Assembly: GCA_001244265.2 (NCBI GenBank)
Contig: CDLV01000012.1
Coordinates: forward strand, 124,001 to 188,000
Direction: 5' to 3'
DNA from: Microbotryum violaceum
Lineage: Eukaryota
DNA length: 64,000 bases
Position 1 is the first letter of the stretch. Each line of letters begins with the position of its first letter. The translations under genes were made by a program, and so were the position numbers. Below the pieces are notes generated by a model, which saw only the letters and a list, made by a program, of their open reading frames with translations, was not told where the DNA came from and did no database searches. Below, piece after piece: positions 8,024-55,400 of this stretch.

Positions 8024-8708
8024 GCGACGCGCAGACATTTGAGCTATTTGAGCCTACCCTTACCGTGGCCCAGTCCGTGAGGGTGCCCGGTGTACAAGAA
8101 GGGCGTCGCGTAGTCTTTGTTGCTGTCGATAGCCATCATCATGGACAAGGGTCCGCATGAGATCAGATCATCGCCAGATCTGATCTGAATTTTTCTGATT
8201 CTGCCTTGATTGATCTGATCTTGATCCGATCTGAGCCGATCAATTTGATCTGCGACATGAAATTGCTTAATTTGGCCCAGAGAGACTTCAACATGTCTAC
8301 ATGCTCCACAACCTCATCATCCTCATCTTCATCATCCTCCAAAGTGATCACCTTGCTCAGCCGCCGCTTTTTGGAGGAGCTCCCCGCTTTTATGACTGGA
8401 TTGTGTCGCATGATCCCTATGAGAAAGTGTTTGCAATGAGTCGGCACATGACACTGCAACGAAGGCCCATCCGAGGAGTACCACACCCTGTAGTATTTCT
8501 GTGGCGCGGGGCTGACACCCAATGCGGCGGCGATGCCAGATGACACATATGCAGATGGGGCGCTCCATTCTCTCTCATGCACTGCAGTGATCAGTTTCAA
8601 ATCACAATGGCAGCATCCAGGTACCGCCTACTTTTGGATTTTTTTCCTCGAGGCTTGATTGATCTGAACTTGATCTGATCTAATGCGGACCCTTAATCAT
8701 GGAGGGCT
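8024..8708 (+). pseudogene. Duplicated fragment of sugar-transporter exon 1 (source about 27587-27697), interrupted by a hAT insertion
   Basis: GCGACGCGCAGACATTTGAGC...CCTTACCGTGGCCCAGTCCGTGAGGGTG...TACAAGAAGGGCGTCGCGT...GCCATCATCATGGA matches 27587-27692. The match resumes as GGGCT after the insertion. Confidence 0.85.
8146..8695 (-). mobile_element. Non-autonomous hAT-like element (550 bp)
   Basis: 25-bp TIRs (C/T)AAGGGTCCGCAT(G/T)AGATCAGATCA and 8-bp TSD ATCATGGA (8138-8145, 8696-8703). GATCT-rich subterminal repeats and a short internal transposase-like remnant with an acidic tail. Confidence 0.85.
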
Positions 8709-27471: not shown

Positions 27472-29760
27472 ATGACGTCCACCTCGTCCGAGAAACACAA
27501 GCTGGGCGACGGCGACGTCGATGTCGAGGGCAAAGCCGGGGCGCTCGCGCAGGTCGAGCACTTTGAGCAGATGACGCAGGAGGTGCGCGACGCGCAGACA
27601 TTTGAGCATAACCTTACCGTGGCCCAGTCCGTGAGGGTGTACAAGAAGGGCGTCGCGTGGTCTTTGTTGCTCTCGATGGCCATCATCATGGAGGGCTATG
27701 GTATGTTTGGCTCAAGTGTCCGGGCGGGTTTCCTACGAGGTCCGGTTTGCCACGCCGAGTGAGGCTGACGGAGTGACCCCGCGCGCCCGCTATGACCACC
27801 TTCCATGTCCACTTCGAGCGAGCCGCCTAGACTCGACGCTGTTGCCTTCGTTCTTTGCTTTCCCGCCCTTTGTCGAACAATGTGAGTCACCACAAACAAA
27901 CCTTTACGTATGAACATCTCCCGGGGGTGAATAATGAAGTCCTGAACCCCGAAAACTGAGATCGTTCCACACCTTGGCTCGGAAATCGTGCCCGTTTGCA
28001 GACGGTACTCGCCTACCGGACGGCAGCTTCACCATCTCGGCGTCTTGGCAAACCGGTCTTTCAGTCGGGTGCCAGGTCGGTTCGATCGTCGGCGTGTTCC
28101 TCAACGGCGTTCTGGTCGATCACTACGGGTACAAGCACACGATGCTCGCATCACTCATCTTCATGATCCTCGTCATCTTCATCCCCTTCTTCTCCACCAG
28201 CATCGAGGTCTTGCTCATCGGGTTCCTAGCTCAAGGAATCCCTTGGGGTATCTTCTCGACTTTGGCTTGTTCCTATGCTTCGGAGGTATGTTGCACCAAG
28301 CTTCGACCCATTTTGGCGACATGGATCAACGCGTGCTGGGTCATGGGTCAGCTCGTCGCAAGTGGGACCCTTAGGGGCTTCCTCAGTCGAAGTGATCAAT
28401 GGGTCAGTCAAACCTTGCAGCCTTAGCTAGCATGATAACGTAAACTAAGTGCAGTATGCTTCGACAGGCTTACCGGATCCCTTATGCTTTGCAATGGCTC
28501 TGGCCCGTCAGCATCTTCGCCGCCTGCGTGTTTGCCCCTGAATCCCCTTGGTTCCTCGTTCGCCAAGGTCGGGAAGAAGAAGCCGTCGCCATCGTTAGAC
28601 GCCTCACTTCACCCGGTCAAGGTTCAGGCTTTTCCCCCGAAGCGAATGTCGCTTGGATGTCGTACACCAACAAGATAGAGGAAAACGTGTCGGCCGGTAC
28701 GTCATACCTCGATTGTTTCAGGGGTATCGACCGTCGTCGTACAGAGGTGAGCGCTCATCATCAGCACAAGTGGGTTTCAGAAACACGCTAACTCAGTAAC
28801 TGTGCTTATCAGATCGCCTGCGCGGTGTGGTCCATCCAAAACTTGTGCGGTTCGGCCTTCATGGGTTACTCGACTTACTTCCTCCAGCGTGCCGGTTTCT
28901 CCCCCGCGGACTCGTTCAACCTATCCCTCGGCCAATACGGACTCGGCCTCGTCGGGACCGTGCTCTCGTGGTGCTTGAGTGGGTCACGGCGTTTGGCTAG
29001 AAGTAGATATAGAGCTAGTCCAATGACCAACGAAATCGCAACACGTACCCACAGTGCACACGGCTGGACGTCGAACGATCTACACCTATGGCCTTGCGAT
29101 CCTGTGCTGTATCCTGCTCGTCATCGGAATCATGGGCATCGCGACTAGTCCTGCGGCGGTTCGAGCCGTCGGTGCCATGTTGCGTGAGTTGTCTTCGACT
29201 GCAATCACTTTGACCGTCCCCGTCACGGTCTAACTTATTTAAATTCCTTAGTAATTTACACCTTCATCTACGATGTCTCGGTCGGTCCGGTGTGCTACTC
29301 CCTCGTCGCGGAAATGTCCTCCACCCGTCTCCGCGTCAAGACCGTTGTCCTCGCCCGCAATTTCTACAACCTCTTCGGCATCGTCAACTTCATCATCATG
29401 CCTCGGTTCATCAGTCCCGACGCTCTCAATTGGGGTGCAAAGTCAGGTTTTTTCTGGTCCGCGCTCTGTTTCTTCTGCTTCGTGTATTGTTTCTTCCGAT
29501 TGCCCGAACCCAAGAATCGTACGTTCGGCGAATTGGACCTCTTGTTTTCTCAAGGCGTTCCGGCCCGCAAGTTCTCGTCGATACATGTCGATCCCACCGC
29601 GACGCACCATTCGAATGGGGCCTTGTTGGACGCTTCCAATCTATACAAGGGTCTTGGTGCGGAAGTGAAAGGTGTGGCACATGGTACGATGGCTGCCAAC
29701 ATGGCCAGGAAACCAGTCTCGTCGCCCTCTTCAGCTTCAGCTTCGGTTGGCGTGGTCTGA
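27472..29760 (+). CDS. MFS sugar porter, alpha-glucoside/maltose permease-like (multi-exon)
   Basis: SMAIIMEGY, FAPESPWFLVRQG, YSLVAEMSSTRLRVKTVVLARNFYN and FFRLPEPKNRTFGELDLLF. Confidence 0.9.
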
Positions 29761-36800: not shown

Positions 36801-38410
36801 GAGCCTTCGATTCCAGACAGCCATTAAAAATTTCCCAAGTTTCGTCATCACTGCCATCATCTTCCGCATTGAACTCCCACTCCTCAAGCACAAATGCACC
36901 GTTGTCTGTGGCGTCGATAGAGTAATGACTCAAATCGTCGCTCGAATGATCACTCATGTCAAAGTCAACCCCTTCGTTCGTGTTGTCGTCCGTCTCATCA
37001 ATCGTGTCACCAGGGCTGCGGGCAAACGAAGTCAAATCCGGCAGGCCATCCACTGTCGTTTGCTCAGCGTCGTCCGTACACCAAAGCCGAAGCGCCACGC
37101 ACCCCTCCATCTGTTGTTCGCCCGTGTCATGGGTGCACTGCCACAGGTAGTAATCAAGGCTCGGGATCGATGGCTCCGATGGAAGGGGCTCCGAGTCGGT
37201 CGACGTGTCGGACGCGGCCTCGTTGGGTTGCCGTGAATACTGTGGTACTCGGGATCCGGTCGCATCCGCTATTTCAATTTCTCGAGGCTAATAGAAGTCG
37301 TAGTGGCAGTAAGTTCTGGACTCGGGCGTCTCGACGACGAGTCATTCCCGGCGGCCACGAGAGGAGGGAGGCTAAAGCCGGCTTACGGGAGGGAGAGGAA
37401 GAGGATGTGATTTCGAGGGGGCCTTCACTTTTGCGCCGCAAAAACTCGGAAAATGACGAGCATTGGTGGGATCGGGAAAGGCAGCATTTGGAAGGAAGAC
37501 TGAGCCCGATATGCGGAGGAAACAGTGAAGGGGAATGAACAGAAAGCAGCCGTTTGAACTGCCGGGACTTTTGAGGGGAGTTTTCTTCTTGTTTTCAGGA
37601 AAACTTCCAGGATCCAATACAAAGTTTTTCTTGTCTCTCCCTTTTTTTGCGTGTTTCAAGTCTCGTTTGGCATCGTCTCCAGCCTCCGACCTCAGCGTTT
37701 CGTTCTCGAACTCGGTCTCGCTTCTCGATTCTACCCCCACTGCAGTCTCTCGTGTCTCTCGCCTTGGCGTTCTAAAAGCTATTAGTCATACCTTAGCCTT
37801 TTATTATCATATCATCTTTGATCGCTATACCATAATGCGAGCAGCGTAGCCGGAAGATTTTACAGACGCCTCGCTCTTCGGGGACAAGACTCGCTCCTTT
37901 TTTCGTTCTCGCACGGGCCATGACCTCATGGCATCTTGTTCTTTTTCTTTTTCTTCTTCGCCCCATCCTCTGGCCCCGTGGTCGCCCCGCTCTCGATGAT
38001 CGCGTCAGCCGCCTTCTTCTTCCTCCGCCTCGTGAATTTCTTACGCTTGGTCTTGGTGTCTTTTTCCTTGTCTTTCTCTACTAGGGACGCTGGATTTGCT
38101 TGTGGTAGTGGCGATGTGTGTCGCAGGGAGCCCATGCTTGAAGCGATGCCGATGAGTGCAAGGCGGTGGGGGAGGGTTGAAGCTTGGAGGTGGGGGTGCC
38201 AGTGCCATGTGTTGAGGCAAAGGGCCGATTAGCGTAGGTGAGTTAGCAAGTGCATTACTTAGCCGCTATTCTGCCTCCGGGCGCGGGCCGTGAGAGGGGG
38301 GGATGGTATACCATGCCTGTACCAACGTTTTCCTGGGCCAAATTTAAAAAAAGCTGCCTTAACCCGTTGAGCGCGACCTAGTTTTTTTGGCAGGCTTAAT
38401 TTGACCCGCA
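33895..38410 (-). mobile_element. Old TIR-bounded relic, possibly CACTA/EnSpm-like
   Basis: Diverged inverted repeats at about 33895-34030 and 38275-38410. Internal minus-strand remnant LRAIAGLPLFLLSTNAAFADDSSGGIS resembles the F-x-DD-x-SG motif of basidiomycete EnSpm-like transposases. Confidence 0.4.
34406..34821. mobile_element. Foldback MITE with about 165-bp TIRs and flanking TA
   Basis: TA-CACATGCAAGCGCGAAACTTAC...GTAAGTTTCGCGCTTGCATGTG-TA. Arms at about 34406-34570 and 34637-34821. Confidence 0.8.
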
Positions 38411-38608
38411 TAAGTGTTGAAATTGCTCGCTGAGCTGGCAGCGGCTGACGAGTCCGGCCCGCGCTTTTTCCGTTCCTCCCGCACACGTGTCTTTCCTGTC
38501 CCACTCACAACAACAAGACGTTCGTCCCATCGTTCTGGCTCCCATAGAAGCATCTTTGAAGGCCACGTACTGACTTATCTTGCTGCTCTCCTCAGTAACT
38601 AGACCAAA

Positions 38609-39521
38609 ATGGGGTGAGTGTAGCATTCTCACTGGACTCTGCTCCGGGGCTTTTGCGACTTCCCGAGGGCCCCCGGAAAGGTTGTCGTCATCAATGCATC
38701 GCTGCGGTGATTACGCCTACTGCGCGGTCTACGTGCGCTGTCCTTGGCATCCTACATGTCACCAGAGACAGGTTTCGACTCAAGCCGTCCTGCACGCACA
38801 TCTTGGGTGTGCAGCAGGCTGCATCGTGCATGACGTCGGAGCACCCAGCCCCGCCTCGCCCCATCCACGGCCACCAACTCGAAGCTGACCACTCCGCACC
38901 CCACGCCCCTTCGCGCAGAGTTACCGTCGAGACCCTGCAAGCCGGAGATGGCCAAAACTTCCCCAAGAAGGGTGACACCGTATCGATGCACTACGTTGGC
39001 ACCTTGCTGAACGGCAACAAGTTCGACTCGTCGCGCGACCGCGGACAACCGTTCCAAACCAAGATCGGCGTCGGGCAGGTCATCAAGGGTTGGGATGAGG
39101 GCGTCCCCCAATTGTCGTTGGGACAAAAGGCCGTGAGTATTTAGATAGTGTGATGGTGGAGTTGGAGTGAGGGCAGAAAGCTGATGCGGGCTCGTTACCT
39201 GTGATTCGAGGTCCGTAGAAGCTCACTTGCACCCCCGACTACGCCTATGGCTCGCGTGCCATGGGTAACATCATCCCCGCCAACAGCACCCTCGTAAGTT
39301 TATGCTCACCAGGTCTAATAACCGTGAGGACGATGATGCGCTTGTTGGAGTGACCGCCGCTGACTTTTGCGGGGCCCATTGAACCGATGACGCTCTCTTT
39401 CCCTGCCCTCAGATCTTCGAGGTCGAGCTGCTCAAGATCAAGTGAGTTCGACCAAGGGCCTATTCCTCCGCTCACTTCGAATGAAGCTGACACATTTTTT
39501 TGTTGCAATCATCGCAGCTAA
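38609..39521 (+). CDS. FPR1: FKBP12 peptidyl-prolyl cis-trans isomerase (5 coding exons)
   Basis: [13 protein letters not shown]...[22 protein letters not shown]...VIKGWDEG...PDYAYG...[17 protein letters not shown]. Confidence 0.95.
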
Positions 39522-40820
39522 ACTTGTTGCACCTTTGACTAGAGGACCTGCCTTGCTCGATCATGTGTTCGCTCTCGGGCGATTACTCGTCTGCGGACGG
39601 GGTCCGAAAAGGGTAGACCTTCCAAGTGGGATCGTGGTCATGAAATTCGATTATCAACACCGATCATGACCGGACATCGCTCTGAACTAGTCTGAACAAT
39701 TCATGTGCCTCTGCGCGCTCAGGTTCGCTCGTGCATGCTTATACTCATGCATGCTCCCCGGCAGGAACAAGCCCCCACAACGAGGAGCTGGGAGTGGGAC
39801 AGAACGCATTGTTCCGCCCCTGCAGCCCGGTGATCCTGCAGAACTCTGCGAATTGCAAGATTACTCGTGTTTCGAGACTCAATGGTGCATCCTGGCAGTA
39901 GTAGTATGCTCGAACGCCCTAGGGGAAAACACTTTCCTGAGCTTACCCCCTGGCAGATTGCTTGAGTGGGAATGAATCAAAGTGTCGGCGAAATCACATC
40001 AGATGTTCGATCGAGAAAAATTTGCATGTCGACAAAGTTACTGGGCCGACGATTAGATAGTAGTCAGGTGTTAGAGCGGACGATAGGATTCGAGGTCGAG
40101 TCAGTGCTGGCCGGACGACTGAGGGATGTCGGCGTTCGGTGGGGGGGGGGGGGGGGGGCGTGCCGCGTGCAGCGTCACTTTAGTGTTTGGCGAGAGCAGT
40201 CACCGATGGGAAACAGTGCAGGCCAGTCGAGGATGGTGGCCGGTGGTGTGTGAGCGAGTCTACGCGAGTACGAAAGAGTAAGAACAGTGGCGACCTACTA
40301 GGGGAAGCTAGGCGAGCACGCATAACTTGACCTTCCTCTGCACCTGTTCTAACCACTTGGCACTCGGCACCTGGCACCTGATACTCTGCTTCGGCTGGAA
40401 ACTTGTCTGCACCGGTCTGGAAGACGCTGAAGAGGGGGGTTTCGCTCATCCGACGCGTGGCTGGCGGTCGACTGCGCCTCGACCTGCTTCGACCCTCTTT
40501 GAGTGACCCACGTTCTCATCACCTCTGGCTATATATATAAGCACGCTAAAAAGTGGCGCGCGCGCGCGCCTCCGACCCTCGCTTCCGCGCGACGTAGCCA
40601 TACATGTTGCCCCCCTGCAACCCGGGTTGCTGGATGGCTCCAGGACTAGGGCAACTTGCTAATGAGATTGACCTATTATTAGGGAGTACTTGTGCAATCG
40701 CCCACAGAACTGTCTATTCTAGCCTCCCCCGCTCAGCGCAAAATCAGACCCGCCTCAGTTCTAAGACGAGTACCAACTATTGTAACACACAGTAATACAT
40801 TCTCGGATTTGCATCGGACA

Positions 40821-43800
40821 ATGGGCAGGCATAAATGGAATCGCTTCAAGTTCTGACCTGACAGGCTACTTCGAGGGACATCCTGACTATAAGCCCCGAC
40901 GCCTTCGTTCGAACCCTCAACTCCGCACCAACATTCCCGGAACCCGGCACATGGTTACGTACACTGCGCGCCAAATTCAGCAAAGAACCTTCGATGAACA
41001 TGCTTGTGGCGAAGCTAGCTCGCCGTCTCCTCGGCCTCCAATGGCCCCTCCGATTCAGGCCGATTTCGACGAAGCCGCCAACCCGAGTGGGATGGATTGG
41101 GATGATGAACGCCACAGCGAGTACGGTGGTGGCTATGAACGCGACTTTGGTCCGGCCCCATACTTTCCGGATCGAACATCCCATATACCAATCGCGCCTG
41201 ACTATAGTGCAAACGCCGAGCGATTATCACTGGCTGATCTGCGCCAAGTCGAAAGCTTCGAACCAGCCACACGTGGTCAGTCGAAGCAAGAAACGTACAA
41301 GCAGTTCGTGTTCAACGACTCTCGTCTTAGGCGCTTGGAACGGCCAGCGCTTCTGCGCCAGTATATCGCGTTTTGCGCTGGGGTCAAAGGTCATCTACGG
41401 CCCTTGATTGACGTGGACGAGGAGCTGTGCCAGGGTTCGGTCGCTAGCGAAGTGCCGCCGCCTTGTTCATGCGAGAGCCCCCTCACATTACTGCTTGACG
41501 TGTACGACCTCATAAGCTGTATGTGAATAAGGCAAGTTGGGTCACTGTGTCGAATAACGCGCTGACAAGGTCGAATCGATGCAGTGGTCGAGGTACCGAT
41601 AGCTTTTTGTCCGAGATCCAGCAGCGATAGCCCATGCCTTACGTACGCCGAGCGCCTTGCTCAGATCGGATTGATCGGATCGACCGCACCTGCTCCTCGC
41701 TCTGCCTTCACCTTTCGACTTGTACAATTCCTCGACTCCTGGTGGAGCACCGCGCCGTTTCCTGTTGATGGAGCAGCTCGCGGGCTCGACATTTTCTATG
41801 AGCAAACTGGATGGGGTCGGCCGGGCCTGTCAGCATAAATTCGTGAGCTCGACCCCCTGTCATGGTTGCTATTGATCATTATCTGATATTTATCATCGTT
41901 CGCGCAGGACAAGGAGCTGCGAAAGCAACTCCAGCGCGCCCTTGACGAATTTCGGGCTCTCACGACATCCGAGCGAGAATTGGGCGACCTCGTCCTCGGT
42001 GTCGCGGGTTCTCTCTCGGATAAGTGTCCAGCATGCTACGGATCGACGCGTCTAAATCAAGCCCACCATAGAGTCGAAGTGCAGCATCTTGTCGCTCTGG
42101 ATGGCAACTTCCAACATTCTCGCGACACCTCAGCCAAATACGATTTTCAGGAGTCGACGCCAGCCCTCTTCATCGGCGAAGGCGAGCTCGAATCGATGAA
42201 GGAGATCTGTGATGGTGGCGACAGCAAGAAGTCAGAAAAGGTTTGCTGATCCGAGCCGCCCCCTGCGATCCTTTCAACGCGCTGACGCCCTTCCTCTCGC
42301 GTCTTGAAGGCCTGTGCCGATTCGTGGAAAGCGGCCAACGGCGGTGCGACACAAATCTCGCGGGCAAGTCCGATACGGGCCTAGTTGCCTGTGTTTGCCG
42401 TCACGATATCGCGTTGAAAATGGCTAATTTGTATCAATCAGGCGAAAAGTTCGTCAGCTCAGCTCCTCTTTCAACCGCTTACAAGGCCTGACGCTCGATT
42501 TTGATGAGGCAGGCGCTACTACGGCTTATCGCTGCTTCAACATATTTCGAACCAACTCCCTTCCAACGATACACTCGGAGTGCTGTATGATGTTGCGTGT
42601 AATTTGGACGGCTACATGCAATCGGTCAGCAAGAGTGGCGGATCCGTCGTTTCTTAGATTTCTGGCCCCGGGGCGCCGCTGACCTGTACTGTACTTCGGT
42701 CGCCTGCAGAGAAGTATCCTTCCCGATCTGTTTCCGAGATTGAAGTTTGCCATGAGCGTGTTTCATGCTTTTGCTCATCAATGGCCCTGCCAGCTTGAGT
42801 ACAACCCGCGCCTGATTCAGCACTTTGGGTTGACGGATGGGGAGGGATGCGAACGCGTTTGGAGTCAGCTCCGATCGCTCATCCCGATCAATCGTCCTGC
42901 GAGCGCTTCTCACCGGCGCGTCAACATCTCGCGTCGCATCGACCTGATGAACAAGAACGGTGTTGACAGCCTCGGTATGCTCTGCCATCCACACTTTCAC
43001 GCCGTGTTCGTTACTTAATTGTGCGGTCCCTTCGAATGCTCAAGATCAGCTTGGAAGGGCACAAACTGATCTGAGTGACGTTTCGGCAATATGGTCCGAG
43101 TCTGACCTTCTCGCGCAATAGGATTTACAACGAGCTGCTCAAGCGGCCACAACGGCGGGTCAACGTCGGGAGAACGAGGACAAGGAGCGATTAGAGCTGT
43201 TTAACATTGTACAGAGGCTACACCACGTGGAAGAAAGGCTGTACGTTCGGCGCGTCAAACCCCATTGGAGGACGAGGGCGTAAAATTGACACTGTGTCTT
43301 GGCATTGTGTGTTCAGATTCGATCCAATGGCTTCCGATGAAGCGAAGGCTCGCTTGCAGCAACATCTAAGAGCTTACCAACAAGAATACGATCGCACGAA
43401 GGAGCTTGCAGCTTCAGGTGCGGCGCGCGTCCTATCTTTATGAGTATCGCCACCTGATGTTTGATGTCCCATGACATACCTAGATTTCCAGCATTTGTGC
43501 AACTGCGTAGTCAAACTTCGCGCATTACACAAAGCGACGGTCCAATTGCAATGCTATCAAGAACGAATTGACTCAATGGGTCGGGGACAAAGCGGCGCGA
43601 CAATCGGTCAAGTCGAAGCCAGCAAGCTTGTCAGCGTCTCACAGACGCACAGCAAGAAAGTAAAAGTGGCAATCGATATGTACAATAAAGCGGTCGGGGA
43701 TTACCGAAATGCTGCGACCGAGCAATCGGCCCAGATTCTGGACAACTTACCGCTCGCTACCACAATTAAGTCGCTTGTGACTCTGTCGCCAACGGACGCT

Positions 43801-44239
43801 TTCTGGCAAGACGGTTTTTTCGTACACGACACTGCGCCTTGGGCGATTGATACCGATGTTCAGAAAGGGATCAGGGCGGTTTTACTCAAAGCCAGGGCGG
43901 AAGAAGAGATTCTCCGGATCGGAGCTGAGGTTCGACAACTACTTGCGTGGCTCGAAGATGAGGACACTCGCTTTGTTAGGGTATCTCAGGCATGGGCAGA
44001 GGACCGAGGTGAGATGGACACACCCTTTCTTTGTGTTGGTGCTGTACCTTACGTCGCCCCTTCTATTAGTTCCCGAAGAAACGCTTCTATTAGTTCCCGA
44101 AGAAACGATCGAAGCGCTATCGGAGCAGGAGGTCGAGGAAGAAGATGATGCTGAGCTCGGGGAGGGCGGCGGAGAGTCAGGCTCGACAAGGGGTGAAGAC
44201 TCGGACGACCTCGAGATTCACGACGAGCCCATGGGCTAG
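40821..44239 (+). pseudogene. KDZ transposase with CxC1-like domain (Kyakuja type), disrupted
   Basis: CSC...FC...CPACYG, ALDGNFQH, DTGLVACVCRHD, SGEK, LYDVACN, VFHAFAHQWPCQ and GLTDGEGCERVWS. Frameshift near 41830 and in-frame TAG at 43119. Confidence 0.9.
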
Positions 44240-44770
44240 CTAGGGATGGCTTGGCGCATTTGTTGACTGTAGATTATTTGTTATTGAAGGACTTTTCTTT
44301 TAGTATGCGGCCCATATCACACATGGTAGAATGTGGACGCCAGTGCACAAAAGTAAAATGGATGTCAGCCTTAATGAGGCGTTGACGCGTTGACGACCAC
44401 GATCCCACGAGCCGGTCGCCACGGCCACACTCCCGAACTGCAGCAGTACGTGACAAGCTCGAAGGTTCTGCTAAGTTGAAAACTAAAAATTGGTGCGCAT
44501 CGGTGCTGACATTTGCAGGTTCAGGTTTGGGAACGTTGCCAGAGGGGGCGGGGGGCGGTGAGGATTGGTGTTGCTGTAGTTGTTCTGTTCCAACAGCACC
44601 CCGAAGTGGGTCCAGCGCGTCCAACGGCGCTCCGTTGTACAGTGCTTGCGATAATATGTCAGCAAAAATCAATGAAATACGTCACCGCATACCTACTCCG
44701 TTGACGTGATAGTTTATGTAGTCGAGTGAGCAGGGATATTGGTCCATCGGCCAAGGACCTTGTAGGGGCT

Positions 44771-45416
44771 GTGTACTCCCGTGGGTACACCTACACAGAG
44801 TCGGCGCGTGACAAGAGTGTAACCCCGGGGGACCCGGCCTGTGCCGTCGACAAAGCTGTGTACTCCCGGGGGTACACAGTCATTCGGCGCGCAGGGTGTG
44901 ATCACTCCCGGGGTATACAAGGCGCAAGCGGGGTCCCCCGGGAGTACACAGGCGCTTTCCCGCTTGCGCCTTGTGTACCCCCGGGGTGCCAAGCCGGTCA
45001 CCGGTGGCAGATCACTGTATAATAACATGTCCGATTCTACAACGGCAGGCGGTTAATCCTTTCGGTAACTTCAGACACATCCTGAGCTTCGATTGGGTGC
45101 GTGGAAGATTGTTCTAGTGCAGTTTCGCTCTGCTCGGTGGTTCGAACGGAGATTCAGTTAGAGAAGTGCATGGGCCTTGCGGGCTTTTCAGAGTGCAAGT
45201 CGGATGTAGCAAACGAATATTTCGTCGGTTTCGTCGCAGGAGGGTGTTCCATTCAGTAACTGCAGACACATCCTGAGCTCTGAACGGGGGCGTGGAAGTT
45301 TGTTGTAGTGCAGTCAGCAAGGCCGTCGGCGGCGACGGACCGCGCCTGAGCCGTGGAACCCCAGGGGTACATAGCTGGAGAGGGCACCGGTCGTGTGTAC
45401 CTCCGGCGGGTACACA
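44771..45416. repeat. Array of imperfect palindromes GTGTACYCCCGGGGGTACAC inside the KDZ element
   Basis: About eight variants at 44771, 44817, 44858, 44897, 44931, 44974, 45356 and 45395, with a further copy at 47223-47241. Confidence 0.8.
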
Positions 45417-45714
45417 TCGCCACGCCGGTTGTACAGTGCTTGTTAAGAGTGTCCTAGAATTGATGAAGCATGTCGTCGTATACCGGTTCCTCGTTTCCGA
45501 AGGCGCAGGACTCTGTTGTAGTGTATCTACGCCCTGCCCTAAGGTTTAAGATTGAACTAGAATTTCCGCCTTCGGAGTGCGTTGTACCTCGGAGTGAATC
45601 ATGATTGCAGAGCAGGATCTCCATTAACACAACATACAAGCTAGACAGCTACACACGCTCACGGAAAACTCGGGATGGTCATCGCCTAACCGGTGAATTG
45701 ACACTCATGGTGCC

Positions 45715-47160
45715 TCATGTCCCAGTATCCAGGCCGCGCTCCAGCTCGCTCAGACTGGTCAGCTCGGAGAGGGTGGAGAGGTTGCTTTCGGCCTCCGAAC
45801 CGGCTGCCGATCCGTGGTCGGAATGTTGGCCGGTCGCCGAACTGTGTTCCGATATCGCGTCCTCCTCTCGTGCCCCCGAGGTCGACGCGGCGCCCTCTCC
45901 GCCGGACCCCTTCTTGCGCATCCAACAATACGCGTCCCTCTGTTTGCTCGACAGCGCCAACCACATGTGGGCACACTCAACAATCCAGGAGTCCCAGATC
46001 TTCTTCCTTTCGGGCTCGAGGTCCGCATCGGTGGGCGGCTTGGGAGGTTTGGGAACGTGGACGAGCACCGTCGTTGCAAATGGTCTGAGCGCTGCTTGCC
46101 AGGTGCGATGTTCGCTTTCTAACTGATCCCGGTAATCGTCCGGGACACGTTTCCCGAGAAAAGGGCGGTACACCTTTCGGATCCATCTTAAAAGGCGGTC
46201 ACTCCCTCTCCTGGTCCTCGTCGGTCCTTGCATCGTCCTCAGGGAGGGGGCGTTGGCACTCTTGGTACAGGAATGAAAGGATTTCACTGAATAGGCGCAA
46301 TTCCTCATGTTCGGCGGCAATGTCGACGGGGACGGTGAAGATGCGCGCGAGGATATCGTCGAAGTCTTGGATGCGGGTCCTATACTCCTTCAAAACTCTC
46401 GCACTCCCTCCACCTCTCTTTCGCTTCTGGTTATCGTATGCATCGAACAACACGTTCCTCCAATGGATGAGCACGGTCAACAGGCTCCGAGGCTGACGTC
46501 CATTCCCTTTGTACCCTGCCCATTCATCCCAAACAGGCCACATGACGTAGTCGATCTCCTCCCGGACCTCATAGTCAAAATTTTCGACGTCCTCGGGATT
46601 GGGTCTTGAGTCATGATGTCTTTGGGTTCCATCACCAGCCGACGCGCCTTTTCCGCCGCCCACTCGTCGTGTCTCGCACGGTCCGCTTTCCCCGGCGCCT
46701 CCAACATGTCAAGCTTGGCCTGCAACTGCCGGCGGTATCTTTTCTTTAGGTGGCCAAAACCCTAATCAGATCAGATAAGTACATCAACAAAGGTTTAGCC
46801 GAACTCCACATAGTTTGTTTCTGATCTCCTGGGAAAGCTGTCTAGCACTCACTGCTTGGACCTCACGGTCGGTACCGATCAGCTCAAACGCCGCCTCGTT
46901 GCATCTGTACCGACTGTCGACCGTAGACGGATTGAACGCGCGCTTGTGTATACGAATGATTTTTCTTTTAGGTTTCGTTTGGCCTCATGTGCATGTTCCG
47001 GTGCTACAGTTGGTCCGTCGAGTGACCTGTACCCTCCAAGCAGCTTGTAGTATTTGTTGCAAAGTTCACAACGGACACGCCATTGGCCGGACTCGTCACG
47101 GATGAGATGCGAGTCGATGTCGAGCCAGGCGCGCTCGCCCTCGGTGGCGCGTGGTGCCAT
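45715..47160 (-). pseudogene. KDZ cargo gene A: CxxC N-terminus, helical region, HMG-box-like C-terminal helix; frameshifted
   Basis: Collinear ORF pieces MAPRATEGE...VRCELCNKYY, FDYEVREEIDY...FLYQECQ and WIVECAHMWLALSSKQRDAY. Confidence 0.55.
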
Positions 47161-47333
47161 GTTGGAACTTGGAGTGGGGGTGAGGGGTGAGATCGGTGAG
47201 AGGGAAAGAGCAGTGTCCCAATGTGTACCCCGGGGGTACACGTCGCGCCTCGCTTCACCTCACGTCACCGAGCGCGCGCGCTCTCCTCTCACAGCATCAC
47301 CGACACCGCGCGCGTCACAGCCGATCCGATCCG

Positions 47334-48056
47334 ATGCCCTCAGCGAACCACGACAAGTTACAATCAGCGATTCTCTCTGCAGGACACAAAGGTCAAGCTC
47401 ATCGAGTATTTGCACGAGACAAGATATACTGGCCACCTGGCACATTGCCTGTCCCAGGCGGGAAGCAACTTGAATACGTAGTCGGCACCGAGCGCGTCGG
47501 ACCTATATGGAAGCTTGCAGTGTATGCAAGCGACTCGGCCAACAACGAGCTTTGCTACTACGAAGTCATTGACGCCTCAGCACCAAGCTGCCACTATATC
47601 GATGCCGAGTTTACGCGCCCTTCCATTGACAATTCAGCAGAAAAGGCATTGATTACGCGTAATGCAGCGTCGTATTTCCCTGGCACATATGGTCAGCTGG
47701 CCAGCTCGGACACCTTGCGATCTTGCGTCTGCAGGTCAGAACTGCCGAACTACCTTGTTCCCTGCTTCTGTTTTATATCTATTGTTCCAGCGTCAACGAA
47801 TAATCTCGGCTTTCATTCTCACTGCGGGCACACCGTTTGGAGAACCCAACGCGAAGCGTGTTATTACGGACATTCTCGACAGCTTGAAGGTTCTGCTCTC
47901 ACTTCGCCGGCGTCTCGGGGGTCCGAAGGGGTAGTCGGAGAAATGTGGGTGCTTTGCTGTTGTCACCCCAAGCTCTGGGGCGAGCTTAACTGCAGTTTGA
48001 CATTGAGTAGGATGCGTGAGTGCTTTATTTGGACATCCATTAAATGCCTGAATTGA
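47334..48056 (+). CDS. KDZ cargo gene B, unknown function (3' end uncertain)
   Basis: Protein-like ORF starting MPSANHDKLQSAIL, divergent from cargo A. Confidence 0.4.
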   Translation: MPSANHDKLQSAILSAGHKGQAHRVFARDKIYWPPGTLPVPGGKQLEYVVGTERVGPIWKLAVYASDSANNELCYYEVIDASAPSCHYIDAEFTRPSIDNSAEKALITRNAASYFPGTYGQLASSDTLRSCVCRSELPNYLVPCFCFISIVPASTNNLGFHSHCGHTVWRTQREACYYGHSRQLEGSALTSPASRGSEGVVGEMWVLCCCHPKLWGELNCSLTLSRMRECFIWTSIKCLN

Positions 48057-48302
48057 ATGTCCGGAGTAAAGTCTGAAACGTTAGGCGTCAGTAAATCTAT
48101 TTGCTTTGCGATCAAAATCGTGTCGCATAATTGATCCACGGACGAATCAGCTAGTCAAGATGCGTGGAAACTTGTTGAATACCTCTTGCCACACACAGGT
48201 CAATATCACCTCAACGACTACAAAAAGTTTGGCCATCTATCTCAACGCGCGATAGGCGCACCAACAATATACTGAACAACAGAAATGTAGTCGGATTCGG
48301 AA

Positions 48303-50163
48303 TCAGGATGTTGCAGCTCCCAAATCAGCATCAGAATCGGAATTAGAATTAGAATCAGAACCAAGATCAGAAGCAGAAGCAGAATCAGATCCAGAGACTT
48401 GGTCTTCTGGCTCCGTTTCCAACTGTCCCGTTGTCACAGTACCTTCGGCACGAGTGCGGTCGAAAGAGCCCTGGCCTATCTCCTCTTTGAGTGAGAAAGT
48501 AAGGCCACCCTGTCGCATCAGAGGGATGATTCTTCTCAAATCCGCAACGGTCGGCTTCTTGCCATTTGTGGGACTGCGGAAATCACGCTCTTGAAGACCA
48601 TTTCCGAACTCGACAATAAGAGCGATTGGATCCTTCGCAAGAGTTGCCTGGTTATAACTCGTAAGCTTGGAAAGCACGTAGGGCTGAGTAGATCTATTTC
48701 TCTGGTGGCGACGACGGAGCGCTTGATCTGCACGGCCACAGATGTTCAGTACTAGGCTGCAAAATGTGGGCGCAGAGCCGTGGAATGGTTGCTCACTATA
48801 GTGATCGTCGATTATGATGCTATACCATGCGCAGAGCACTCGTTGAGACGCCTTGTCAACATCGCCATGATTAGCTGCTCATCAGATTTTGGGATCAGCG
48901 CCAATCCATCACCGAGCACAAAATACGTCCTAAAGCTTGCTTGACAAACCCCGCATCTTATATTGTTCATTTTGCTCCTGATTAAACCGAGTCCCATTAA
49001 CGCAATCCGTGAAGTTGACTAGAATATCTTTTTGCTGGTCAGAATCCCAGCCTTGGCGCCGCATGAAAGCTGCGCCGCCAAGCGTAGAAACGATAAAACG
49101 ATCATTTTTGTTCTCGAGCTTGTTCGAGCTGACGATGACTAACGCGTCGAAGCCGTAGCCCTCAGCATACTGCTCAACCTAATTCGGTGCCGAGCTACGT
49201 AAGTCAGCAGGGGGAATTTGGCCTCTGAGGAGGCGGAAACGGAGAGCCGAGTCTTCACGGACCAGCTCGTTCATCGCATTTTCGTATCTGCGCCGCAGTT
49301 TGGATGGTAGCAGAATCAATTCGCCATCGCTTGAGGGGCCGAGCGGTCTCCTTTCGATCACGCGCTTCACTTGCCCTCGCTTCCTTCCATTGTTCCCAGA
49401 GTTCTGGTGAGTTTTTGACTTGTTCCCAGTAGCGTGATCCAATCGCCTGTAGCGCAGAGAAGTCTTTCGGGACTTTTTAGGGGTCCGAGTGATGGATTTG
49501 TCTGTCAGAGTAGCGTCTTGTAATGGAGAGTGAACGGTTTTGGGATGAGTCAGGAAGGCAGACGCTACACTTACCCCGAGTCCGTTCTTTTCGAGGAGAC
49601 AACGGAAGAAGCGACTGGTCTTGAAGTCATTCCAGTCGTTTCGGTCGTTGCTTCGAGTCGCAGGGGGCGTGTACGAGTCGAGATCGTCGTCCCGAACTCC
49701 ATGCCGCAAACAGTATTGCATCTTTTCGAGGCGACGTTGCAAGTTATAAAGCACGTGGGTCTCCTTTTGCGACGATGACAGGCGCGAAGTCGAAGGCAAC
49801 GCTCGAACGGCATCGTGGAGGGCTCGGATCTCATCCTGAACCTCTTCGATTCTATGACTCATTGAGTTGGACGAGTTGGACGTGGTCGGCCTTGAGGCGA
49901 GCGTCGTGCTTCGTCCATCTTCCGCGATGCTGGAAGCAGAAATGTGGTGCTGTTGTGTCTGAACGGTCGCTGAGGACGACAGTACAGACCCCATTTCGGG
50001 GCTGCTGGTCGATTGCACCGAAGCATCTTCGGCGGTAACAACGAGGAATGAGGAGTAGGGTCAGCAGACAATAACAAAACAATCAAGACACGAGGACGCG
50101 TCTCACGGTCGGGAGCGGCAAACGCTGACGCGTTGCTGGGAGCAGACAGGAGAGGCAACACAT
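48303..50163 (-). pseudogene. KDZ cargo gene C, unknown function, fragmented
   Basis: Collinear minus-strand ORFs of 279, 61 and 178 aa with a basic NLS-like segment, a CGVC motif and a Ser/Asp-rich tail. Confidence 0.45.
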
Positions 50164-50770
50164 CGTATGGTCGGTGGGCTTCGATTCAAGATATACGACA
50201 GCAAGCGTGAGGGAACAGAAAGTAGTAAGACCAGGACCGTGATCGATAGCGGCGCGTCAAGCGGCAATGCTGTTGCTCGCTCGCGCTCAGGCTCGCTACG
50301 GCCGGTCTACCAGCGTGGTGAGACGGCACGTGACTTAACCACGTCCATCAATGCTACCTTATCCCCACCGCTAATGAGGTAATGATGTAATGATGTTCTA
50401 ATCGAGCTTCTTCTCGCTACTAATCTAAAGAAGAAATTGACGATGAGTTTTCCGAATATGCTTTATACGCAATGGCAGCATTTATAAGGTTGGATTACCC
50501 CGATACGAGCTCGCACGTACCTGAGATGAACGTGTTGAAGGCCACACCAGCCTCCGTGTTGCGCTAGTCCTCGGGCCATCCAGCAACCCGGGTTACAGGG
50601 GGGGCAACATGTATGGCTACGTCGCGCGGAAGCGAGGGTCGGAGGCGCGCGGCGCGCGCCACTTTTTAGCGTGCTTATATATATAGCCAGAGGTGGTTCT
50701 CATCGTCTCATTCGATCATCGATCACTGCAGCTCGGATTGATCCCGAGCACGTCATCTCATCGGCCTCGC

Positions 50771-52164
50771 ATGTCGAATGGAGGAGCCGTATCCGGTGTA
50801 TGGCGCAGAGGCGGCGGTGTAAGTGGCTCGTCCACTTCGAATGCACCCACTCGTCATCATCATGCCCCCTCTAATAGCCGTGCAAGTGGACGAACTGGGG
50901 CCGCAACCGCACGAGCAAGCGGAGCAGCACGCGGTGCATACTCCGCGTCGCACCAAGCCATCTCAAATCAGGGGTTCACCACCGCCCGAGCATCGATAGG
51001 GAGGAGGCTCGATCCGATGGAGTTGCTGCAGAGTCCGAGTCGAGGGTTGAATGGGCAGGCCGACGGCGTAGAGAGGTGAGCGATCGTAGTCTGAGGGGAT
51101 ACCGTTTTTATTTGGGGGGCTGACTTCTTTGGCCGATATGTTTGGTGTACTAGTCTTCAAGATTCTTCAACCCAAGAAAACTTTTACGACTGGATCCGAG
51201 CCAAAATTGGCCATTTCGAGACGACCTGGGACGTGGGAACTTCTTTTTCGCGCAACTCGAAGCCGACCCACCTCTCCCAAAGGCGCAACAAGAGCTCGCC
51301 ATCATTCTGCTAGATCTGAGAAAGCTGCGCGAAGGTTTGACGTGTCTGAGGAGGGACGATGCCTTTGCTCTCAAAGGTATGTTCCCGATTGACAAATTCG
51401 ATCAGGAAACCCTTCCCCTAAGATTCAATTTTCGTTGCCTCAGTGTACGAAACCTCGGTCCTCCTCTCCCTTCGAGGATCCAACTGGTCCGTCGTCGGCA
51501 CATGTCTCCCTTCCCTCGTATCGATGCTCTCTCAACCACAACACCAACCCAAACTCACCTCACCCGACTCCCTCCCCTTTCGACCCTCTCGCTCTCCGAA
51601 ACCCCCCCCCCACCCTCCATATCCACCCCATCCCCCTCCTCTCTTCCCGACCCTAAAAGCTACTACACCTCCCTCCATCTCCTCTTCCTCCTCTCCTCCA
51701 CCAAAACCTCCCCTACCAATCCCTCTCTAGCAAGCCAAAGCGTCTCGGACGGTAAAACCGCGCCTGATCTTCCTACTTTCTGGGCGACGTGGGAGGGTTT
51801 AGAACCTCAAGTTCGACGGTCGCCTTGGGTTCAGAGTGTGAGACAACTTTCGAGTCTCTTGTTGCGAGGCGATTATATCCGATTCGAGAGGATCCTCTCC
51901 TCCTCAGTTCAAGCACCGTCAAAATATCCCTCAACGACCGTCTGGGATCCTCTCCAACTCGTCCTCATCGAACGCTTCGTCCCTTTCGTACGAACCAAAG
52001 CTTGGGAGAGGATGAGCAAGAGTTACAAGCTCAAGTCGGATCTGGAGGATTGGGGTTGGTTGAGTAAGGTGTTGTTGTTCGATTTGGAAGGAGGGGAAGG
52101 TAGGCAGGACGGAAAGGAGAGGTGTCGCAAGTGGGTTGAAGAGTTTGTGAGAGGTAGAAGCTGA
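50771..52164 (+). pseudogene. PCI/SAC3-related helical protein with two apparent single-base frameshifts
   Basis: LRKLREG...FALK/VYETS, LLRGDYIRFERI and VPFVRTKAWERMSKSY. Introns 51076-51153 and 51377-51443. Frame changes are needed near 51275 and 51530. Confidence 0.6.
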
Positions 52165-52474
52165 GGTTGCCTTGAAGGAAGGCTCGAAAGCATCGGATAG
52201 ACTGTTTGCTCTTCTGTTGTTGTAATCATCAGTTTAACCTTTGAATTGAGCCACAAGTGTCCGACTTGAGGAATTTACATGCATCTGCACTTCCTGGTCC
52301 ATCCGGTCAGCCAAGAAAGGAAAGCTCATGACATCGACGATGCATGAAGATCAAGCAGACGCAAAACGACATAAAAGACCGAGACACCAAAAATGAAGGT
52401 ACACACACGAGCACAAATGAAAATAGTACCGCCATAAAGAGGATAAAAAGGGTCATATACTATGGTGAGACGAA

Positions 52475-55400
52475 TCACGTATGGGACCATAAGGAGGGGT
52501 GAAGCGCCCCCGAGTTTGATCCACGCATCGTCGTTGTTGTCTGGGCAGTTGAGGATGCCTCGTCGTTCACTGTGGAGGAGGAAGGGGTAGCCTTGAACAA
52601 AAAGAATGGTTGACCCAATGAGGATGAGGTCGCTCGAGCTTCCGCTTCGCCCCCTCTGAAACGTTGCATCGCCAATGTTCGCCCCCCATCCTCACTCGGT
52701 CTTTTCGATCCCCCGACAACGCTGCCGTCACCCCTGTCTGCCATCACCTTGTCAGCAACGATCTCACCCGATCCTTGCCGCTCCATCTTCCGCCGAGTAC
52801 GTATCCCTCGAACGAGTCCGATCAAAATCCACACGAGGTCGACGATCAATAACGCGAACAAGGCGATGACGATGACGGCCTCGACGACGATGATGACGGC
52901 GCCGATGACGACTCGGACGATCTCGTTCAGCCCTATCGAGCGATTGAACGAGATCAACGCGCCGAAGATCGCGCATTTGAAGATTTGGAGCAGGATGCGG
53001 AATGCGTTCGATGACTTGTCCGTCCAGGGCACGGTCACGCACATGAAGATGAGGACGAAGAGCTCGATGACGAGCATGGCAACGGATTGGACCCAGCCGC
53101 GGTTCTGAGGTTGACGTCGAGAAGGATCAGAACGTCAGCACCGATGTGGCATAGGCATACAGCAGAGCCCTTCTATGACTTACCTGAGCAAAGGCGATGA
53201 ATGCCGCATCAGCAAAGGAAGCCACGAGAAGTGGAATGAAGAACCACCACCTCGCAGGCTTGTACGGGTTCCAGAAAGGGGCGTAGGCTGCGCCTCCCGA
53301 GACGAGCAGCTTGTCGGCCGAATGCCAGCGAACATTCCGGATGCAGAGGAATGTGAGGCCGGCGAGAGAAACTGTTGTGGTAACGAAAATAAAGACCGAA
53401 AGAATGATAAGTGCGTAGGACTGAGAAACAAGGAAGGCTGGCTTGGATCAGTAAAAGAGACTCGCTTCCCAGAAGCCGAAGGTGGTAGGCTCACATCGGA
53501 AGAGCCGAGCTTCCATTGGAAGAAGGTAAACAGTGTCAATGGAAACCACGAGATGAGAAGCTGCAGAAGCGACGACGAGGTACAAATCAGTATTGAGATC
53601 TGTATTGTGTATTGCGCAGCTCAGTGGACAACTCACCACTCGTAACGCAGTGGAGAGGAAGAGCGTTGAAGCCACGCCGTGTCGAATGTCGAGGCTATGC
53701 TTTCCACCGTTGCGCTTGGCGGCCTTCCACGACATCAAGCCAAAGGGGATCGCAAGGATGATGGCGACAGCGAGAAGTAACGCGAGAAGGAGTAAGAAGG
53801 AGAGGAAAACGGTCATAAAGGCATTGTAAGGTGAGATGTGCCACTGGAACACGAAGCGAGGAATACCAAAGTCGAGTGACGAGTAGGTATCCTGTTCGGT
53901 CACCTTGGGAACGGCATAATCTGCGGTCGTCGTCGCCAGATCCATTTCATACAAAGCCCTCTTCTTGATCGTCGTAACGGCATGGTCCGCCGCCTCGGCT
54001 AGCCGAGTGTGCAGATTGCTAGTCCACGTTCGGTTGCCTCGTGCGTTCCATGACGTTGATGTGTTGAAGGCAGCAGAGGGAGGTAGGCTAGCCAGCCTGT
54101 CGGAGAGAAAGGTTGAACGCCTAGCCAGTTTTGACGCCTGTCGACTCGAAGTCGCGAACGAGACCTGTCGCGCCTTTTCGGTCCCACCTACGAGGTTCAG
54201 CGACCCCGCAAGACGGGTCAAGTTGCCCCCTGTTCGATCACGTAGGTCGTCGATCGACTGCTGGAAAGGCTGGATATAGACTAGGCCCAAGGCCCATGCA
54301 AAGTTTGTGGTGAAGCTGTTGTAGATGAGCGGGTAGTCGAGGGAAAGCAAACCCGAGACGGCGACAAATTGATACCAGCCAATGATCTCAAGCAGCCTTT
54401 CTTTCGTCCGACCTCGCTGCATCGCTTCGGTGTCGCCTTGCCAAAAGTTCACAAACATCCGTAGCAGTCCAAGCACGATCGCACCGAGCATGAGTCCGGC
54501 CGTTGCCCACGATACGCCTGCCCATCGCACCGACTCGCCATTGCTCAATCGCATCCGCAGGCAAGTCGCTTCCGATCCGTCAGCGACGCTCAGAAGCCTA
54601 ACGGTCGCGACGGCTTCCAAATCGGGTATCCGATAGCCAATCTTAGGGATTTTGACGTCGTCTTGAATGGAGGTAGGGAGCGGTAACGCTAGACAGGAGG
54701 GAAGACAACACACGGCATCAACTTCGAGGTCCAGCTCGATCAGCATCGATTGAGTCGTTGCCGGAAAACTCACTCGCGCTGGCGACGAAGTCGTACTGCG
54801 GCAGGGGACACATGACACCGCCGAGGGTGGTGCACAGGTTGATGCTCACGTTGACGGCTAGAGGTAGGGGTTTTGTCGTTCAGCTTGGGCGTCGCAATGA
54901 AGATAACAAATGTCTGGTGTCCGGCAAAGACGGTGCCACCAGTTACAGCGCCGAAAGATATGATCGGGCTGCCGAACCCGCGAGCGAGCAAGTGAGAACT
55001 TACCTTGGATCCCATAGGCAGTCAACTGCAACGAGATGATGGCTCTAGTGTCGGGCTCAACACTCGCGGCATTGATGTCGAACGATATGGTCTTGTCGAT
55101 ATCTGCGGAGTGTTGATAGAGGGGGTCAGTCTCAGTGTTCACTTTCGCAGGCCGAACCGAGACACGCGAGCTCGTCAACTCCGAGGCCGGGGCGCCGTGG
55201 CGGGCTGGGCCGACCAACTCGACGTAGCTCGACGGCCGAAATCGGGCAATGGACTCACTGTCGTACTGCAGCAAAAACTCTTTAACTTCGATCGCTCGAG
55301 CTGCAGAGCAATACGAGACCGCACTGGCATCTGCACGACCCAGTAGGGATCCAGCAGCGAGATGATGGCGAGGACGATCGAGGGCGATCAGTCGATACGA

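Follow-up and report, generated by a model that had tools for sequence, protein, structure and literature searches.

The stretch analysed here, hereafter the window, comprises 64,000 nucleotides (nt) of Microbotryum violaceum DNA (assembly GCA_001244265.2, contig CDLV01000012.1, positions 124,001 to 188,000 of the forward strand), and all positions below are counted from its first letter. A transposon of the KDZ type spans 40520-50695 of the window (10,176 bp). It is bounded by long terminal inverted repeats (TIRs), flanked on both sides by a target-site duplication (TSD), and contains a broken transposase gene, after whose stop codon ~6.3 kb (44240-50557) remain up to the right TIR. Three further genes, all of them spliced, lie in this interval, and they are named here A, C and B in their order from the transposase to the right end. 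The limits of the element are as follows.

40512..40519, no strand: left copy of the TSD, GTTCTCAT, the same 8 nt standing outside both ends
40520..40655, plus strand: left TIR, ~136 bp, beginning with CACCTCTGG and holding the palindrome CAACCCGGGTTG (repeat search, pattern search, BLASTN)
50558..50695, minus strand: right TIR (repeat search, pattern search, BLASTN)
50696..50703, no strand: right copy of the TSD, GTTCTCAT

The element starts with CACCTCTGG and finishes with CCAGAGGTG. The repeat search resolves its ends into three inverted arms. Two are perfect, 44 nt at 40520-40563/50652-50695 and 53 nt at 40563-40615/50599-50651; they amount to 97 perfect nt in all and are shifted by a 2-nt difference within a GC run. 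The third, of 46 nt, follows at 91%. BLASTN merges the arms into an alignment of 138 columns with 95.65% identity. TIR patterns of 42 and 46 nt, searched with up to three mismatches, each have 2 sites in the window, namely the two element ends, and neither pattern was matched in any of 100 shuffled sequences under the same tolerance. Neither the repeat search nor BLASTN found further copies or fragments of the element within the 64 kb. A preliminary description of this DNA had reported near-identical TIRs of ~135 bp, a perfect 8-bp TSD, exact ends and about 6 kb of additional genes. All of this holds: the TIRs measure ~136 bp, GTTCTCAT adjoins both ends, the empty-site string proposed there (CCCAC-GTTCTCAT-CGTCTC) agrees with the flanks, and the interval contains three spliced genes.

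The transposase gene and its lesions

The transposase gene begins with an ATG at 40821, ends with a stop codon at 44237-44239 and has nine introns. Its model was built from tblastn searches with the homologues P0002-P0005, from the N-termini of P0001-P0007 together with a local comparison, and from spliced contigs of the sequencing run X16, whose label as RNA is only a guess. The gene and its lesions are listed below.

40821..44239, plus strand: CxC1+KDZ transposase gene, a pseudogene (Pfam, tblastn of P0002-P0005, comparison with P0001-P0007, spliced X16 contigs, frame arithmetic)
41519-41584, 41843-41907, 42241-42309, 42449-42512, 42625-42709, plus strand: introns 1-5
~42974-43031, 43241-43316, 43418-43483, 44009-44092, plus strand: introns 6-9
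40854-40856, plus strand: TGA at codon 12
40863-40866, plus strand: 4 extra nt
41829/41830, plus strand: 2 nt lost, giving TAA (15 letters in RNA against 13 in the window; frame arithmetic over the 65-nt intron agrees)
near 42363, plus strand: 1 nt lost in a G run
before 43032, plus strand: 3' splice site and ~8 codons lost (RNA has 25 other letters; P0005-P0007 read GRWL(R/G)RRLSNAQ)
near 43116-43118, plus strand: TAG replacing a conserved W
after 44116, plus strand: in-frame loss of ~157 codons
44060..44107, plus strand: 24-bp tandem duplication (2.0 copies, 100% match) across the last 3' splice site of the gene (tandem-repeat search)

Two stop codons, small insertions and deletions, a lost splice acceptor and a ~157-residue deletion thus bear out the earlier claim that the transposase is disrupted. 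Its identity as a KDZ transposase is likewise secure: among the plus-strand open reading frames (ORFs), the Pfam family KDZ (PF18758) reaches 80.2 bits on ORF 42683-43018, where the cut-off is 26.6, and 27.6 bits on ORF 42213-42491. P0002, a homologue with 98% identity, scores 177.4 bits for KDZ. The CxC1 domain (PF18802) scores 23.1 bits on ORF 41566-41838 and 19.4 bits on P0002, both below its cut-off of 26.9. PF18802 is present in the precomputed annotation of more distant transposase relatives, and the PCxC...CxC pattern is retained in the consensus of the transposase alignment (A3, 9 proteins). In the same alignment the acidic residues D370, D440, E536 and E539 (numbering of P0005) are invariant, and they are candidates for the catalytic residues of a DDE-type core. 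By tblastn, the window transposase retains the blocks ALDGNF, CRHD and DGEGCER.

A protein search with the ORF of the KDZ core returned 26 proteins. The top 7 are 94-99% identical, come from M. saponariae and M. silenes-dioicae and lie on several chromosomes; they are followed by M. intermedium proteins at ~63% identity and then by proteins of Agaricomycetes and Cryptococcus floricola. P0005, an intact-looking Microbotryum homologue, aligns with the CxC1-KDZ protein P0021 of C. floricola at 27% identity (E 1e-58) over ~630 residues of P0005 and 707 columns; the aligned part takes in the helical region that lies beyond the KDZ core. A tree of 22 relatives, made by a quick method with support from the Shimodaira-Hasegawa-like approximate likelihood ratio test only, rooted at its midpoint and without labelled Kyakuja, Dileera or Zisupton references, contains three Microbotryum KDZ lineages. 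The lineage of the window copy forms one clade that splits by species.

Three further genes

The genes beyond the transposase and the palindromic motifs next to them are the following.

45718..47160, minus strand: gene A, homologue P0034 (436 amino acids, aa); intron 46852-46762 in RNA, second intron near 46243-46195
47334..48053 (end approximate), plus strand: gene C, homologues P0039-P0045
48539..49994 (48539 approximate), minus strand: gene B, homologues P0027-P0033; introns 49262-49179 and 48796-48728 canonical and in RNA
44764..44990, no strand: cluster of near-palindromes GTGTAC(N)CCCGGGG / CCCCGGG(N)GTACAC, with the 3' end of the transposase gene on one side and that of gene A on the other
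47223..47242, no strand: perfect palindrome GTGTACCCCGGGGGTACAC, with genes A and C starting divergently on either side

Gene A is 97% identical to P0034 over the last 157 residues. When its C-terminal ORF was used as query, five representatives were found at E<=0.001 among 1.84 billion proteins, and all five map back to this element. The N-terminus has a zinc-finger-like CxxC...HxH pattern. In the ESM Atlas the best score of gene A is 0.82, to a cluster in which 38% of the members carry zf-BED; shuffled proteins reach 0.8 one third of the time, and the likeness to zf-BED is taken as a lead only. Single bases have been lost from the window copy near 46962-46969 and near 46598, and because of these frameshifts an ab-initio splice search returned no introns for this gene.

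The relatives of gene C are seven Microbotryum proteins of 180-212 aa, except for P0043 (MVLG_06887), which is longer (350 aa, partial). They share the invariant block ...CYYE.ID.S.PSC.YID..F..PSIDN...TRNAASYFPG.

Gene B also has seven Microbotryum relatives, of up to 432 aa. A skip of 101 nt at 49572-49472 of this gene is present in RNA contigs too, and the window copy is 1 nt short at the acceptor near 49472, with another 2 nt gone near 49300. In the ESM Atlas, gene B scores 0.93, 0.91 and 0.91 to three Basidiomycota clusters named 'hypothetical protein' and lacking Pfam families, the first of which may be gene B's own. The long ORFs first chosen by eye for two of the cargo genes, of 293 aa (49179-50060) and 224 aa, were rejected, as they are partly out-of-frame read-through; for the 293-aa ORF this follows from the 1 and 2 nt that the gene B copy has lost.

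Genes B and C accompany the transposase in M. saponariae as well. There, the locus tags of Chr2-1 place B (g04307), C (g04309) and KDZ (g04311) in one neighbourhood; on Chr5-2, B (g07956) is near KDZ (g07961), and another B (g08075) adjoins C (g08076). No relatives of A, B or C were found outside Microbotryum, by searches that rely on shared 5-residue words for B and C and on the C-terminal ORF for A.

No known domain was recognised in these genes. Among 86 six-frame ORFs of at least 45 aa in 44200-50560, no Pfam family scored above its curated cut-off (E<=0.05), and none of the 86 matched a reverse transcriptase, an integrase or another transposase. The full-length homologues likewise matched no Pfam family above its cut-off. 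PHROGs and NCBIfam gave nothing meaningful with the proteins of these genes. Two alignments were used for further searches: A1 holds the relatives of gene C with P0043 first (8 rows), and A2 those of gene B with P0030 first (7 rows). PDB sequences gave 0 matches at E<=10 for P0043 and for the profile of A1; viral contigs searched with A1 gave 66 pattern matches and 0 relatives, and metagenomes searched with A2 gave 308 pattern matches and 0 relatives. AlphaFold2 models have a mean predicted local distance difference test score of 34.3 for A1 (P0043) and 32.2 for A2 (P0030), too poor to show any fold.

These searches bear on the reading that the cargo includes a highly diverged TET/JBP dioxygenase, which would make the element an ordinary TET-plus KDZ transposon. 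Nothing speaks positively for it, and the two predicted structures are too poor to exclude any fold. Against it, TET_JBP, 2OG-Fe and HMG domains were not found by Pfam in 18 ORFs at E<=0.01 or in 12 ORFs or homologues at E<=5. Neither PF12851 nor any other 2OG-Fe family matched the ORFs or the full-length homologues P0034, P0030 and P0039-P0045 at E up to 5-10, and the PDB searches were empty. Moreover, in the available parts of Kojima 2025 (PMC12730594), a screen of Pucciniomycotina yielded TET-plus Dileera from Puccinia and Melampsora only. We regard this reading as extremely improbable. The preliminary description had seen no TET/JBP gene and no 2OG-Fe dioxygenase motif and had itself named two outcomes that would speak against it, a cargo of nested unrelated transposable elements absent from other copies or a diverged TET/JBP; across the 18, 12 and 86 ORFs and proteins given to Pfam, the methods used, which work on sequence, agree with its observation and found neither outcome.

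The motifs of the element and of P0043 allow a bolder proposal. Across the 64 kb, the regular expressions for the CCCGGG-centred motif match 8 times, with overlaps, and never outside the element: 6 of the matches are at 44764-44990 and 2 at 47223-47242. The palindrome CAACCCGGGTTG, present in both TIRs, is related to the same motif, and that these palindromes are binding sites is speculation. P0043 has the motifs YIDVEF at 92, SFHIVF at 188, FDLVPY at 257 and YRLGGNSK at 268. Their order and spacing recall, to our mind, motifs I (DxE/DxD), II (SxH) and III (D) of the archaeo-eukaryotic primases; the gene C of the element retains only the motif-I block. P0043 had no match in Pfam, PHROGs, NCBIfam, PDB sequences or viral contigs. 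A, C and B might then form a co-adapted module that replaces the TET/JBP of rust and mushroom KDZ elements, with C derived from a PrimPol-like gene of which P0043 is the fuller form, and A a zinc-finger protein binding the CCCGGG-centred palindromes in the TIRs, in the cluster at 44.76-44.99 kb and in the A/C promoter. We consider this rather improbable. If true, a partner derived from a primase-polymerase would be new for a eukaryotic cut-and-paste transposon.

The family in other genomes and the age of the damage

Parts of the element are present in 20 sequencing runs from eight studies, with a best share of words of 0.69. Logan contigs of three DNA runs (X1, X9 and X10) and of X16 were compared with window 38000-53000. 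Summed word depth, which is not a copy number, is given here in the order X1/X9/X10: it is 420-646/38-61/149-220 over the transposase, 358-559/29-52/119-176 over 46517-50023, where most of the cargo genes lie, 358-1500/29-117/115-560 over the whole element, and 57-68/3-6.5/17-23 over the flanks. The depth over the element fits the many transposase paralogues of Microbotryum. Three stretches, 40.5-41.5, 44.0-46.5 (44012-46516) and 50.0-51.0 kb, have a depth ~2-3-fold higher than the rest of the element.

The three DNA runs all contain a joint between 41383 and 46429, on opposite strands, with a depth like that of the family (442/36/169). In addition, the annotated protein P0036 fuses the N-terminus of the transposase (40604-41370) to the C-terminus of gene A (46405-45718). 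Both point to an abundant rearranged derivative, presumably non-autonomous, which is consistent with the higher depth of the three stretches.

The same data bear on the possibility that some or all of the cargo consists of captured fragments of host genes (transduplication), or of remnants of other elements, that have no function for the transposon. In its favour, gene C aligns only with residues 11-168 of the partial, 350-residue P0043 and does not conserve the motif-II-like stretch; an expressed copy of gene A appears to have a different upstream sequence; and 44012-46516 stands at ~2-3 times the word depth of the rest. On the other side, each of the three DNA runs has the same word depth from 46.5 to 50.0 kb as over the transposase, M. 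saponariae has B, C and KDZ as neighbours again, family contigs keep the frames that the window copy has lost, the RNA contigs of A and B show splicing at canonical sites, and 0 of the 86 ORFs match a reverse transcriptase, an integrase or another transposase. We hold capture to be unlikely.

Splicing is visible in X16, which has five GT..AG joints in the transposase gene, two CT..AC (minus-strand) joints in gene B (48727>48797 and 49176>49261, with canonical ends checked) and a 91-nt joint in gene A (46762>46854) that is canonical after a shift of 1 nt. None of these joints occurs in the three DNA runs. A related genome thus transcribes and splices the transposase gene, A and B, with the proviso that X16 is RNA by a guess.

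Other copies of the family lack some of the damage of the window copy. Contigs of all four runs have loose ends at 44083 and 44119, which shows that other copies keep the ~157-residue segment. Family contigs of X1, X9 and X10 exceed the window by 3 nt over 41623-42629 (X9: 41337-42422) in the transposase gene and again by 3 nt over 49056-50174 (X9: 49060-50134) in gene B, and an X1 contig exceeds it by 1 nt over 46368-46959 in gene A. These surpluses equal the numbers of bases missing from the window, so most copies do not have the small deletions.

The insertion itself is not confined to the sequenced genome. A contig of 939 nt that covers 50669-51605, and so reaches from the flank across the right end to 27 nt within the element, is present in X1 and X10, and the site is thus occupied in those genomes too. 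No empty-site joint was found among the 15 joints listed of the 24 that the comparison of the four runs gave. The flanks of X1 and X10 differ from the window by 0.35-0.43%, those of X9 are identical over 1766 nt, and between the window copy and the family contigs 4-9 letters are unlike per 592-1119 nt (0.45-0.8%). With a flank divergence of ~0.4% and a copy divergence of 0.45-0.8%, decay in place since the insertion is enough to account for the lesions.

The preliminary description had instead proposed a recent mobilisation in trans, since the copy's own transposase is disrupted; intact members of the family would have moved a copy that was defective before its insertion. This is favoured by the perfect state of the 8-bp TSD and of 97 nt at either end while every gene is broken, by the intact spliced transposase transcripts of a related genome (X16, with the same proviso), and by the rearranged derivative 41383-46429, annotated as P0036, whose abundance in all three DNA runs argues that non-autonomous forms of the family propagate. 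Against it stands the expected decay, which suffices, the insertion being common to runs whose flanks are ~0.4% apart and the copy 0.45-0.8% from the family contigs. At least one position of the ends has also changed privately, namely 40639 in the left TIR, which is T in the window and C in all contigs of the three DNA runs. Moreover, a defective cut-and-paste donor leaves no sibling, so that private lesions cannot date the damage. Mobilisation in trans is to us the less probable course, and this copy can be explained without it.

Taken together, 40520-50695 is very probably a dead copy of a multi-copy, transcribed family of CxC1+KDZ cut-and-paste transposons, Dileera/Zisupton-like, which in Microbotryum carries the genes A, C and B. 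The family suggests a mechanism in which intact copies would produce a DDE-type KDZ transposase that binds the ~136-bp inverted ends, excises the element and reinserts it after cutting the target with a stagger of 8 bp. The present copy lies between genes, ~1.4 kb downstream of an FKBP-type gene. The family carries a fixed block of spliced genes beside its transposase: A, with a zinc-finger-like motif, C, a short relative of a longer protein, and B, for which there is no lead. We infer that these are accessory genes of the element, with DNA-binding, regulatory or anti-silencing functions, rather than passengers. With all four genes apparently broken in frame, the copy would move only if another copy supplied the proteins, and its lesions most likely arose after insertion.

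Several points weigh against this interpretation. CxC1 stays under the Pfam cut-off in this family (23.1 and 19.4 against 26.9 bits), and the assignment to a clade (Dileera, Zisupton or Kyakuja) rests on TSD length, TIRs and domain architecture together with the literature. Copy number and the structure of single copies are seen indirectly, as Logan contigs collapse copies. Gene C is without the C-terminal 180 residues of P0043, which suits an accessory gene no better than a captured or decayed fragment. The gene A contig of X16 departs from the window at 47155 (codon 2) and continues for more than 255 letters that are unlike anything in 38000-53000; it may represent an expressed gene-A copy in another upstream context, or a chimeric contig. 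Seven deletions of 1-2 nt, private to the window copy, are all in short repeats and may come from faulty assembly, on which neither the two stop codons nor the larger insertions and deletions depend. Finally, a role of A, B or C in transposition is conjectural.

Some observations concern the surroundings of the element. The FKBP-type peptidyl-prolyl isomerase ORF was recognised by eye at 38599-39144 (plus strand), ~1.4 kb upstream of the insertion; X16 has high word depth over it and not over 39503-40504 or the right flank. At 40254, in the left flank, contigs of X1 and X10 have 32 extra letters with respect to the window. Further away, a tandem array at 15552-15761 contains ~7 copies of a 24-nt unit with one spacing of 21, and two segments of ~100 nt (8046-8145 and 27600-27692), 95% identical and 19.5 kb apart, may be part of a duplicated gene or repeat.

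Classification and likeness to known elements

The preliminary description called the transposase Kyakuja-type, and this part of it is not supported. In the available parts of Kojima 2025 (PMC12730594), Kyakuja elements have 7-bp TSDs and no TIRs, whereas Zisupton and the Dileera element Zisupton-1_PGr have 8-bp TSDs. The 8-bp TSD, the long TIRs and the sub-threshold CxC1 domain of the Microbotryum element fit the Dileera/Zisupton type and not Kyakuja. As described there, Kyakuja-1_LB shares with it the PF18758 domain and termini that begin with CA and end with TG, and differs in its 7-bp TSD without TIRs, against 8 bp and ~136-bp TIRs here.

According to the accessible text of the same paper (PMC12730594), TET-plus Dileera families of rust fungi occur in Puccinia and Melampsora, and Zisupton-1_PGr has in common with our element a KDZ transposase, an 8-bp TSD, a Pucciniomycotina host and the nature of a multi-gene transposon. 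The difference, compared by description, is the PU-type TET/JBP dioxygenase, which is found there and is not detectable here.

Metagenomic sequences give a wider view of the superfamily. Alignment A3 had 250 metagenomic KDZ relatives, of which 80 loci (543 kb) were kept; in these, tblastn with 8 cargo proteins gave no match to A, B or C below E 0.39. Among the 140 ORFs of at least 170 aa in 22 loci of at least 10 kb, 83 were scanned, leaving out L015 and L017 (near-duplicates of L016 and L020), ORFs overlapping longer ones, mostly on the opposite strand, and the shortest ORFs. The domains recognised in these 83 ORFs were KDZ and CxC1/CxC2, a single WD40 and a single retrotransposon gag; TET_JBP was not among them, which suggests that TET-less KDZ relatives with large uncharacterised ORFs are common. 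No usable complete element bounded by TIRs was found in the metagenomic loci. Eight loci (L009, L010, L014, L017, L020, L021, L024 and L048) have long same-strand ORFs (350-780 aa) without Pfam families upstream of the KDZ core and, with the exception of L014, where it was not seen, an opposite-strand ORF of 536-601 aa near the contig start (391 aa in L024, where the contig end cuts it). They may represent a conserved multi-gene layout in another KDZ lineage.

For a second protein encoded by a DNA transposon there are well-known examples, the CACTA TnpA and the Myb-like ORF of PIF/Harbinger, which are DNA-binding accessory proteins of two-component elements. The Microbotryum element resembles them in encoding further proteins, one of them with a zinc-finger-like N-terminus (gene A), and in its clustered palindromic motif; it differs in that its accessory proteins have no homology to theirs and that binding to the element is only a candidate function.

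The closest known counterparts are KDZ1-3 of Cryptococcus neoformans. In the available parts of the two reports (PMC11343200; 10.1101/2025.05.19.654958), these elements measure 9.2-11 kb (10.2 kb here), have TIRs of 139-241 bp (~136 bp here) and make TSDs of 8 bp, as here, or of 4-8 bp for KDZ2/3. They encode a single CxC1+KDZ transposase, placed in the Dileera clade (PMC11343200), together with at least two ORFs without predicted domains and no TET/JBP, and they are present as few to several full-length copies per genome. They differ in their host, which belongs to Agaricomycotina and not to Pucciniomycotina, and in the transposase, ours being only ~27% identical to the nearest protein found in the genus Cryptococcus (P0021). 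Their extra ORFs (CNAG_00127 and CNAG_07313) were compared with A, B and C by description only; searches with B, C and part of A returned nothing from Cryptococcus. The mobility of the Cryptococcus elements has been demonstrated experimentally, whereas the Microbotryum element is known from sequence.

For Microbotryum itself, the words KDZ, Zisupton and Kyakuja were absent from the accessible text of the transposable-element papers that were word-searched, and the literature joining Microbotryum with Zisupton or KDZ gave, in the portions available, incidental co-occurrence only. Exact ends, TSD, gene models and RNA-supported introns are now given for a KDZ family of this genus. The preliminary description had spoken of a different, uncharacterised cargo set. 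The cargo is indeed uncharacterised, linked to the family and not made of nested known transposable elements; its novelty does not stand, since TET-less KDZ elements with domain-less ORFs in Cryptococcus are already in print, and to a specialist the finding of a dead copy with this layout is no surprise. What the element adds is three extra genes that travel with the family, at least two of them spliced and transcribed, as candidates for accessory functions in a poorly understood superfamily. A giant TET-less KDZ element with extra domain-less ORFs is already known, and the Microbotryum element shares this layout in another subphylum, extending the CxC1-KDZ arrangement of Cryptococcus to a second subphylum of basidiomycetes.

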